A DNA stretch of 64,000 bases from Candidatus Micrarchaeota archaeon (GTDB lineage Archaea; Micrarchaeota; Micrarchaeia; Norongarragalinales; Norongarragalinaceae): contig JACQQD010000008.1 in assembly GCA_016207165.1 (NCBI GenBank), positions 1 through 64,000 on the forward strand. Direction: 5' to 3'. Shown here piece after piece: positions 3,491 through 4,716 of the stretch (its first letter is position 1; each line of letters begins with the position of its first letter). The position numbers were made by a program, and so were the translations under genes. Under the pieces are notes generated by a model. That model was not told the DNA's origin. It made no database searches and was given only the letters and a program-made list of their open reading frames with translations.

Positions 3491-4213
3491 AGCGTAATAC
3501 CTCGCCGCTTTATTGGCGGCTTGCATGAATGGCGTAACGAGTGTCCTACTGTCCCTGCCTTAGACCTGGTGAACCTACTTCTCGGTGAACATGCCGGGGA
3601 ATTCTAGGGGGAAACGAAGACCCCATGGAGCTTAACCGCAGCTTGTTGTTGCGACGCGGTTGATGGATCAAAGCGTAAGCAGGAGCCGTTATGTCGTTCC
3701 TTCTGGGGAACGGATAGGCGAAAGTGTGACACTGCTATTTGTTGACTGCGTTGCTCACTCTCCTTTGGGGGAGGACAGCGGCAGGTGGGCGGTTTGACTG
3801 GGGCGGTACGCCTTCGAGAAAATAACAAAGGCGCTCAAAGCTTGACTCAATCCGGTCAGAAATCGGATGTAGAGGGTTAAAGACAAACGTCAGGCTGATG
3901 GTGACCATAAAAAAATTGGTCGCCGGCACGAAAGTGGGACTTAACGAACAACAGTGTGCCCGTTAATGGGGCCCTGTTCTGACAGACAAGCTACCCTGGG
4001 GGTAACAGGCTTGTCGCGTGCGAGAGTTCATATCGACCACGCGGTTTGGTACATCGCTATCGGCTCGGCTTATCCTGGCGGTGCAGGAGCCGCCAAGGGT
4101 TGGGTTGTTCATCCATTAAAAAGCCACGTTAGTTGGGTTCAGAACGTTGCGAGACAGTTCGGTGGCATCTCCTAGAATTGTTTTGTCGTCTGAGGGTAAG
4201 GTTCCCTAAGTAC

Positions 4214-4344
4214 ACGGGTTTCTTGGCCAGCTGCTTTTTCCTGAAAGCGGCGTTTTTTTTCCTTGAACAGGATGGCATTTTGACTGTATGGAATGAAGGA
4301 ATGTCAACAGTTCACAGGTTCACGTGCCAAGGGACTCGGCTTAA
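4214..4344 (+). ncRNA. BHB-type rRNA intron 1 in the sarcin-ricin loop (131 nt)
   Basis: Central helix AAGT/GCTT, bulges AC|A and AA|G, 13-bp intron stem 4215-4227/4326-4338. Confidence 0.88.
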
Positions 4345-4349
4345 GAGAG

Positions 4350-4401
4350 ATGGAACCTTATTAGGATAATTTCCGTTTTCGGGTGGTAAGTTTCACTCGA
4401 T
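4350..4401 (+). ncRNA. BHB-type rRNA intron 2 in the sarcin-ricin loop (52 nt)
   Basis: Central helix CGAG/CTCG (complete only after intron 1 removal), bulges AG|A and AT|G, stem TGGAAC/GTTTCA; removing both introns restores AGTACGAGAGGAAC. Confidence 0.86.
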
Positions 4402-4716
4402 GAACGGGGAATCGGCGCCTCTAGTGTGCCGGCTCTCTACAGGGATGCCGGGTAGCCACGCGCTAAATGGATAAGTCCTGAAAGCATCTAAGGGCGAAGC
4501 CATACCCAAAACGAGACGACTTAGGTCGCCCGCAGCAGACGGGTTTGATAGAACGGACGTGTAATGCCGGAGCGCAAGCGACGGCTTCAGCGAACCGTCA
4601 CTAAAGGCCAACTTTTGATTCTCCATTAAAACGCTTGGACGAATGTCTTGTCTTCTTGCCTGCCACCGCTCGAAAAAATTCCGCTTTTTTCGCGCTTTCC
4701 AAATGGTTTGTCGGGT

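Follow-up and report, generated by a model that had tools for sequence, protein, structure and literature searches.

Two predicted bulge-helix-bulge introns, five nucleotides apart, in the sarcin-ricin loop of a micrarchaeal 23S rRNA gene

A stretch of 64,000 nucleotides from Candidatus Micrarchaeota archaeon (GenBank assembly GCA_016207165.1, contig JACQQD010000008.1, positions 1 to 64,000, forward strand), called the window below, was analysed with respect to its 23S rRNA gene. The sarcin-ricin loop (SRL) is among the most invariant RNA elements in biology, and the DNA encoding it here carries 183 extra bases in two blocks. These blocks were interpreted as two tandem introns of the bulge-helix-bulge (BHB) type which are spliced by the endonuclease EndA and the ligase RtcB, likely with intron 1 leaving first; we give this interpretation a probability of roughly three in four. 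The anatomy of the locus, its conservation, the covariation within intron 1 and the presence of the enzymes were observed directly. That splicing occurs is inferred, because the only 23S gene needs an intact SRL.

Structure of the interrupted loop

The source genome, from a lineage of the DPANN archaea, comprises 1.27 Mb in 12 contigs and is 90.22% complete. The window starts inside a 16S rRNA gene (1-551), which is followed by a tRNA-Ala gene (772-844) and a full-length archaeal 23S gene. The latter is present as a single copy in the assembly, as a BLAST search of the gene against all 12 contigs returned only the gene itself. When positions 3980-4640 were aligned with cmscan, 192 bases directly after ..UAGUAC fell opposite only 9 model positions, and the alignment picked up again at the 3' strand of the same helix. 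By direct reading, the SRL was found in three pieces, AGTAC (4209-4213), GAGAG (4345-4349) and GAAC (4402-4405). A sequence-only reading of this DNA had described two tandem BHB introns around a 5-nt micro-exon, and every coordinate it gave was correct. The placement of the junctions is unique, because the neighbouring letters A4214, A4344, A4350 and T4401 permit no shift. The elements of the locus, all on the plus strand, are as follows.

1228..4623, 23S (large subunit, LSU) rRNA gene; Rfam RF02540, 2356.6 bits, model positions 1-2987
4200..4207, 5' strand of the SRL-carrying helix; pairs with 4406-4413, 8/8 pairs, invariant in 7 sequences (cmscan structure line)
4208..4213, end of exon 1, AAGUAC; 5' strand of central helix H1 (4208-4211) followed by two bulge bases (4212-4213)
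4214..4344, predicted intron 1, BHB type, 131 nt, no open reading frame (ORF); H1 with 4/4 pairs in 15/15 sequences
4215..4227, 5' strand of the intron 1 stem h'1; 13 unbroken pairs with 4326-4338, pair probabilities 0.98-1.00
4339..4342, GCUU, 3' strand of H1; next to it, at 4343-4345, the 3' bulge of BHB 1
4345..4349, micro-exon GAGAG, 5 nt, consisting of the GAGA tetraloop and its closing G; identical in 8/8 two-intron sequences
4350..4401, predicted intron 2, BHB type, 52 nt; central helix H2 CGAG/CUCG
4351..4356, 5' strand of the intron 2 stem h'2; 6 pairs with 4390-4395 in the window, 3-6 unbroken pairs in relatives
4370..4410, predicted competitor hairpin between a U-rich CGRG segment inside intron 2 (4370-4386) and 4393-4410, spanning the 3' splice site
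4396..4399, 3' strand of H2, CUCG; the 3' bulge follows, with A4400 and U4401 before the cut and G4402 after it
4402..4413, start of exon 3, SRL GAAC and the 3' strand of the SRL stem, read in the sequence and in the cmscan alignment

Cleavage sites were predicted by the rule that four exon bases lie in the central helix and are followed by two bulge bases and then the cut. Applied to the canonical tRNA intron at 8540-8644 of the window, this rule yielded a normal 7-base anticodon loop. In BHB 1, AAGU (4208-4211) pairs with GCUU (4339-4342) in 4/4 positions, flanked by the bulges ACA and AAG, each cut after its second base; the exon-exon helix h has just 2 unbroken pairs in the window and up to 6 in relatives (L020, L026, L028). 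The bulges of BHB 2 are AGA and AUG, again with the cut after the second base. As had been claimed, its central helix H2 spans the first splice junction: CGAG/CUCG has 4/4 pairs only with C4213, its first base after ligation, joined to G4345. In that joined form all 4 pairs are present in 8/8 sequences; the precursor reads AGAG/CUCG with 3/4 pairs owing to A4344 in 7/7 two-intron sequences. G4345 thereby doubles as third bulge base of BHB 1 and second pair of H2. The predicted cuts give AGUAC+GAGAG+GAAC, identical to the Rfam consensus and to the uninterrupted SRL in 19 of 30 related loci, so that the asserted exact reconstruction of the SRL holds. In E. coli numbering, intron 1 presumably lies between C2658 and G2659, and intron 2 between what we take to be G2663 and G2664.

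The BHB motif is not specific when taken alone. A loose scan of the gene, which asked for 4/4 helix pairs with GU allowed, bulges of 3 nt and a stem of at least 5, gave 429 candidates among 2,079,594 junction pairs, and 20 shuffles gave 338 on average; for a junction pair fixed in advance, this corresponds to a chance of about 1.6e-4. What counts is that the SRL prescribes two such pairs and that both of them meet the motif. The region 4190-4425 also folded better than all of 200 shuffled sequences (z = -4.16).

An independent Logan contig assembled from DNA run X1 spans 4148-4421 with 0 differences; it may derive from the source sample. The same run also contains two further strain variants of intron 2 as well as uninterrupted relatives. 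With this contig and the same architecture in seven distinct related sequences, misassembly, raised earlier as a possible refutation, is on sequence grounds excluded.

Other intron classes were rejected. Self-splicing group I or group II introns, or any other Rfam family, gave 0 matches when 4205-4410 was searched with cmscan at E up to 1. Introns with a homing endonuclease were dismissed on account of length: 131 and 52 nt are too short for a LAGLIDADG or similar ORF, and in relatives the lengths of 117-206 nt at site 1 and 35-52 nt at site 2 are likewise too short. A blastn-short search found no other copy of either intron in the genome. Intron 1 has a core at 4270-4309 (GGAUGRC ... hairpin ... 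GUYCAACA) which lies inside a covarying helix and is kept in 14 relatives; it had neither an Rfam match nor another copy in the genome, where a regular expression for the core returned chance-like matches only.

Sequence comparison of the helices

Fifteen distinct sequences were available for intron 1, and all of them have the 4-bp central helix and the 3-nt bulges. In one relative (L017) H1 has undergone a compensatory change from AAGU/GCUU to GAGU/GCUC. Individual stem positions from 3 to 13 take as many as six different standard pair types in this set, and 7 of the 13 pairs have changed on both sides among the 7 two-intron sequences. Overall, 93.5% of the alignment cells for the intron 1 stem are paired, compared to 35-52% when the partner strand was slid, and none of 500 shuffles matched the covariation score.

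For BHB 2, the comparative data are neither for nor against, as far as the aligned sequences go. Support for it is drawn from the exact geometry at the SRL junctions and from an independent solitary intron at site 2 in a distant genome of a different family (G257), 35 nt in length, with the same CGAG/CUCG helix and the bulge AAG cut after its second base.

Predicted folding and order of removal

In the precursor ensemble, H1 had a probability of 0.72-0.76 and the intron 1 stem of about 1.0, and the pairs of H2 and of the intron 2 stem were at 0.00. With the SRL stem forced, H1 ranged from 0.42 to 0.66 in 7 sequences, and the inner H2 pairs rose from 0.000 in the precursor to 0.001-0.055 without intron 1 in 7/7 sequences. 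RNAalifold predicted BHB 1 and not H2 from the precursor alignment; from the alignment with intron 1 removed it predicted the SRL stem together with H2 without any constraints, the strict BHB costing 0.7 kcal/mol more. The solitary intron of G257 adopts the BHB as its minimum free energy (MFE) structure, with H2 at 0.60. For comparison, two canonical tRNA introns elsewhere in the window had central helices at 0.45 and 0.11. By these models a low helix probability is compatible with being a substrate, but BHB 2 appears clearly weak.

The two motifs cannot coexist because G4345 belongs to both, and they would therefore be processed one after the other. A 4-bp H2 can form only once C4213 and G4345 are ligated, because the 5' half of a BHB needs six exon bases (four helix and two bulge bases) and the micro-exon has five. 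All 8 two-intron sequences have A at the second bulge position of intron 1, and none of them has a 4-bp H2 in the precursor. BHB 1 would moreover be complete 57 bases ahead of the full transcription of intron 2. The earlier proposal that intron 1 is removed first thus stood in part: it is favoured by the motif overlap at G4345, by the H2 probabilities and by RNAalifold, which make it the likely course; the order follows from structure only, and an EndA of broad specificity, which accepts relaxed BHBs, might take the 3-bp helix. As a model-based claim of its own, the order intron 1 before intron 2 is rated as evenly balanced.

The proposed course of events would be as follows. Two ORF-less BHB introns, five bases apart, would lie in the SRL DNA of the sole 23S gene, and the epsilon2-type EndA of the host would cut after the second base of each 3-nt bulge. 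RtcB would join the exons, by which AGUAC-GAGAG-GAAC would be rebuilt exactly. Intron 1 would leave first, as BHB 1 is transcribed earlier, is strong (13-bp stem) and is complete in the precursor; upon ligation of C4213 to G4345 the 4-bp helix of BHB 2 would arise, and intron 2 would then leave.

Two alternative pairings were observed at intron 2. Its first 7 bases (AUGGAAC) are invariant in 8/8 two-intron sequences and able to pair with the 5' strand of the SRL stem. This pairing and that of the internal segment across the 3' splice site both out-compete the BHB in the predictions; possible explanations for them are folding traps, timing devices and relics of the origin of the intron.

Splicing enzymes of the host

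EndA is encoded by an ORF of 428 aa on G000:C4, with the catalytic domain PF01974 in two stretches and the N-domain PF02778 in two stretches. The protein matches PDB 4fz2 ('tRNA intron endonuclease') over residues 52-428 with an E-value of 1.9e-120; we take this structure to be the three-unit epsilon2 enzyme of ARMAN-2. By sequence, the EndA of the host is of the three-unit epsilon2 type.

RtcB is also present in the genome (PF01139, 479 bits). Its reading frame of 963 aa lies outside the window, at G000:C9:93630-96344, and the Pfam model positions 1-50 and 48-426 are split by about 1350 in-frame bases. This insert resembles an intein, in the very ligase needed for splicing at the SRL.

Alternative interpretations

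Several results weigh against the preferred interpretation, most of them with respect to intron 2. The 7 two-intron sequences are close kin and not independent. The intron 2 stem shows one-sided changes only, with 0/6 pairs changed on both sides and 78.6% of cells paired, and H2 together with the 5' strand of this stem is invariant in these sequences. Even after removal of intron 1, H2 stays at or below 0.055, which makes BHB 2 a minor predicted conformer; with the SRL stem forced, the strict BHB 2 fold is 2.3-5.8 kcal/mol less stable than the best fold in 7/7 two-intron sequences, as compared to a difference of 0 in G257. The competitor hairpin, in which the CGRG segment pairs with CUCGAWGAA, buries the 3' splice site and belongs to the MFE structure of the intron-1-spliced form; its UCGRG/CUCGA part also appears in the RNAalifold precursor consensus, without compensatory changes. 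BHB 2 has no exon-exon helix (h = 0) and would in any case be of the relaxed BHBh' form. An obligate order is in doubt because, according to PMC3239211, EndA of the epsilon2 type cleaves both strict and relaxed BHBs in vitro, and the 3-bp precursor helix might suffice.

Support at the RNA level was absent as well. Among 24 sequencing runs listed, three DNA runs held at least half of the sampled words and six RNA runs held 0.10-0.15; three of the RNA runs were examined (X19, X9, X12), none of which demonstrably holds the organism. RNA contigs covered conserved exon parts only, mostly 90-95% alike, with a depth of zero in the bins 4225-4399. Joints were seen at 4170->4402, where the sequence in between is not known, and at 4180->4402, with 38 other letters that correspond to a relative's uninterrupted SRL. 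These joints are uninformative on splicing here, because the same joined form exists as DNA in run X1 (4213->4402, with GAGAG between).

A clearly less probable alternative, which nevertheless deserves serious attention, is that both introns are spliced without a fixed order, with the epsilon2 EndA using the 3-bp GAG/CUC helix of the precursor despite its A-G mismatch, and the two motifs not bound together. The broad specificity of this enzyme type in vitro speaks for it, and so does the missing exon-exon helix of BHB 2, which makes a relaxed motif necessary even without intron 1; furthermore, BHB 1 survives prior removal of intron 2 (H1 0.63-0.66). It is disfavoured by the three inner H2 pairs, which are at 0.000 in the precursor in 7/7 sequences and are not predicted there by RNAalifold, by the invariant A at the second bulge position of intron 1, which precludes a 4-bp precursor H2, and by BHB 1 being transcribed first and far more stable.

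That only intron 1 is removed and the 52-base insert stays in the rRNA is very improbable. In such a molecule a pseudo-SRL hairpin would form between GGUUCC (4200-4205) and GGAACC at the start of the insert, with a loop enlarged by 2 bases; the invariance of the first 7 insert bases, an intron-1-spliced MFE structure that pairs GGUUCC with GGAACC or GGAACU in L001, L002 and L099, and the minor share of BHB 2 among the predicted conformers would agree with this. Two extra bases between the tetraloop-closing G and GAAC would break a motif that is uninterrupted in 19/30 loci, however, and the true 3' strand of the stem (4406-4413) is fully complementary, with 8/8 pairs in 7/7 sequences. The exact junction geometry would also have to be a coincidence of about 1.6e-4, and the site-2 intron of G257 has no such pseudo-stem.

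Slightly more remote still is the view that the interruption marks a dead gene copy or an error of assembly and that a functional, uninterrupted 23S gene resides in the unassembled part of the genome. The assembly is only 90.22% complete in 12 contigs, rRNA operons often assemble poorly, and uninterrupted SRL DNA of relatives occurs in the same DNA run. On the other hand, the remainder of the gene gets the Rfam score of a complete LSU rRNA, and the architecture recurs in 4 other genomes and in metagenome contigs with the BHB pairing kept by compensatory changes; the assembly holds no second 23S fragment, and the DNA contig over 4148-4421 is free of differences.

With respect to function, it had been suggested that the arrangement acts as a maturation checkpoint or hides the site from nucleases. 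Nothing in the data pointed to a selected function, and in mature rRNA the SRL would be exposed just as it normally is; shielding would extend to the DNA site alone, against a cognate homing endonuclease. An obligate recursive splicing that serves as a late maturation checkpoint, in which the GAGA tetraloop of this GTPase-associated loop is assembled last and the large subunit is unable to activate translation factors until both rounds are completed, is considered improbable. The introns are degenerate and ORF-less, and the most economical explanation is that mobile introns, selfish or neutral, have settled in an invariant target and are not a regulatory device.

Distribution among related genomes

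The SRL region was taken from 30 loci of 41 related genomes searched. It was uninterrupted in 19 loci, carried the site-1 intron alone in 6 and both introns in 5; a further genome (G011) was later added as the seventh with site 1 only. The five two-intron genomes belong to three genera (G000, G001 and G002, all of one genus, G009 and G019); the contig of G019 stops just within intron 2. Of 68 genomes of the order, 4 matched a generic pattern for the whole arrangement, compared to 1 match in the reversed controls, and a search with the junction 13-mer added G019; an exact 13-mer match in G029 lies inside a protein-coding region and was rejected as chance. Scanning one genome per species gave 3 records, assigned to Candidatus Micrarchaeota archaeon, two of them from groundwater isolates. 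In the metagenome scan, 5 of 11 matches were real and represent 3 distinct two-intron sequences; the other 6 lack SRL context and were discarded. The two-intron architecture was thus present in relatives (4 other genomes and metagenome contigs) at 79-85% identity.

When 4320-4430 was compared by BLAST to a phylum sample of 401 genomes, intron 2 was recovered only in G000, G001, G002 and as the stub in G019. A pattern for site 2 only matched 37/401 genomes (38 places), about as frequently as in the reversed control. Among the 30 places examined, G257 alone has SRL context; the 8 other places fell outside that set, four of which (in G077, G119, G194 and G027) are away from the 23S match of their genome. 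Intron 2 without intron 1 was not found among the genomes searched from the window's own family.

Split BLAST matches indicated that the 23S genes of relatives carry additional inserts at the equivalents of 4031/4032, about 4140-4152 and 4487/4488, for example in G004, G007, G015, G026 and G035. The window's own gene is free of these three inserts. The order is unusually rich in 23S inserts.

A variant of the loop itself was noticed in the phylum-level set. In 18 of the 20 loci printed, the uninterrupted SRL reads ..CAAUACGAGAGGAAC.. and not ..AAGUACGAGAGGAAC..; CAAUACGAGAGGAAC occurs in L069, L073-L077, L080, L084 and L086-L095, of which L073 derives from an unpublished genome (G094). The variant puts an A where the bulged G is normally invariant, which we take to be G2655 of E. 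coli, and within the 20-locus set only L082 and L083 keep AGUAC.

Comparison with described introns

BHB introns at conserved rRNA sites of archaea are known, some of them short and non-coding, as indicated in the consulted parts of PMC4496867 and PMC6125680, and BHB and group I introns coexist in LSU genes of DPANN archaea according to the latter. The introns described here share with archaeal rRNA BHB introns (16S and 23S of Thermoproteales and Desulfurococcales, LSU of DPANN archaea) the 4-bp helix, the 3-nt bulges and a highly conserved site, a motif on which the tRNA-splicing endonuclease acts in those genes; they differ by their site in the SRL, by the spacing of the two introns of 5 nt, and by the second helix that lies across the first junction.

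The nearest precedent was found in a tRNA. According to Fig. 1C of Fujishima et al. 2011 (PMC3239211) and its legend, pre-tRNA-Pro(GGG) of ARMAN-2 (Candidatus Micrarchaeum acidiphilum) has T-loop introns at 53/54 and 59/60. This case agrees with ours, as far as that text goes, in the phylum, the epsilon2 type of EndA, adjacent BHB introns in a conserved loop and a micro-exon. By arithmetic on the published positions, the ARMAN-2 micro-exon (54-59) has 6 nt and is just enough for its own 5' BHB half, whereas here 5 nt are available and one base has to come from the upstream exon. Relaxed hBH and HBh' motifs co-occur with a broad-specificity EndA where tRNA genes have multiple or non-canonical introns and (alpha-beta)2 or epsilon2 endonucleases, as described in the available sections of PMC3239211 and PMC4090602. 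Within what these sources cover, multi-intron archaeal tRNA genes resemble the present locus in having several BHB introns per gene, relaxed motifs and an EndA of broad specificity.

A parallel of another kind is offered by recursive splicing. Twintrons and recursively spliced introns of eukaryotes and organelles have a splice site or motif which becomes functional only after earlier splicing. The likeness is one of logic alone, as the spliceosome or group II/III ribozymes act there and a protein endonuclease with RtcB would act here.

The literature search, in which older literature and supplements were partly outside the scope, revealed no intron in the SRL, no BHB micro-exon shorter than 6 nt and no BHB helix across a prior junction. 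The sequence-only reading knew of no description of the arrangement; none was found here, but the tRNA-Pro of ARMAN-2, as far as it could be followed in PMC3239211, is a precedent for part of it. What appears to be new is the SRL as the site, an exon one base shorter than a BHB half, and a motif built across the splice product of another.

If the order is obligate, the locus would offer a natural substrate of about 240 nt for studying the coupling of EndA cleavage and RtcB ligation, and would tell whether the second cleavage depends on a completed ligation and how much relaxation an epsilon2 enzyme really tolerates. Annotation of DPANN rRNA as well as primer and probe design will miss or mis-score genes of this kind.

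Further introns in the window

The same 23S gene carries a group I intron elsewhere, within 3158-3491; the match to Rfam RF00028 covers 3158-3431 and scores 53.4 bits, where the cut-off is 50. The LSU alignment shows an insert of 304 bases at this site after ..CUCUUA; by eye, the exon stops after UAAGGUA (3188) and restarts at 3492. The insertion site is presumably L1931. This position is among the sites listed for archaeal IB4 introns in PMC6125680.

Two tRNA genes in the window have introns in the anticodon loop, one at 8540-8644 on the plus strand with an intron of 30 nt and one at 23614-23732 on the minus strand with an intron of 41 nt. Both were missed by ARAGORN and detected by Rfam. The gene at 23614-23732 has an intron stem of only 1 bp beside the BHB and thus represents a relaxed motif.

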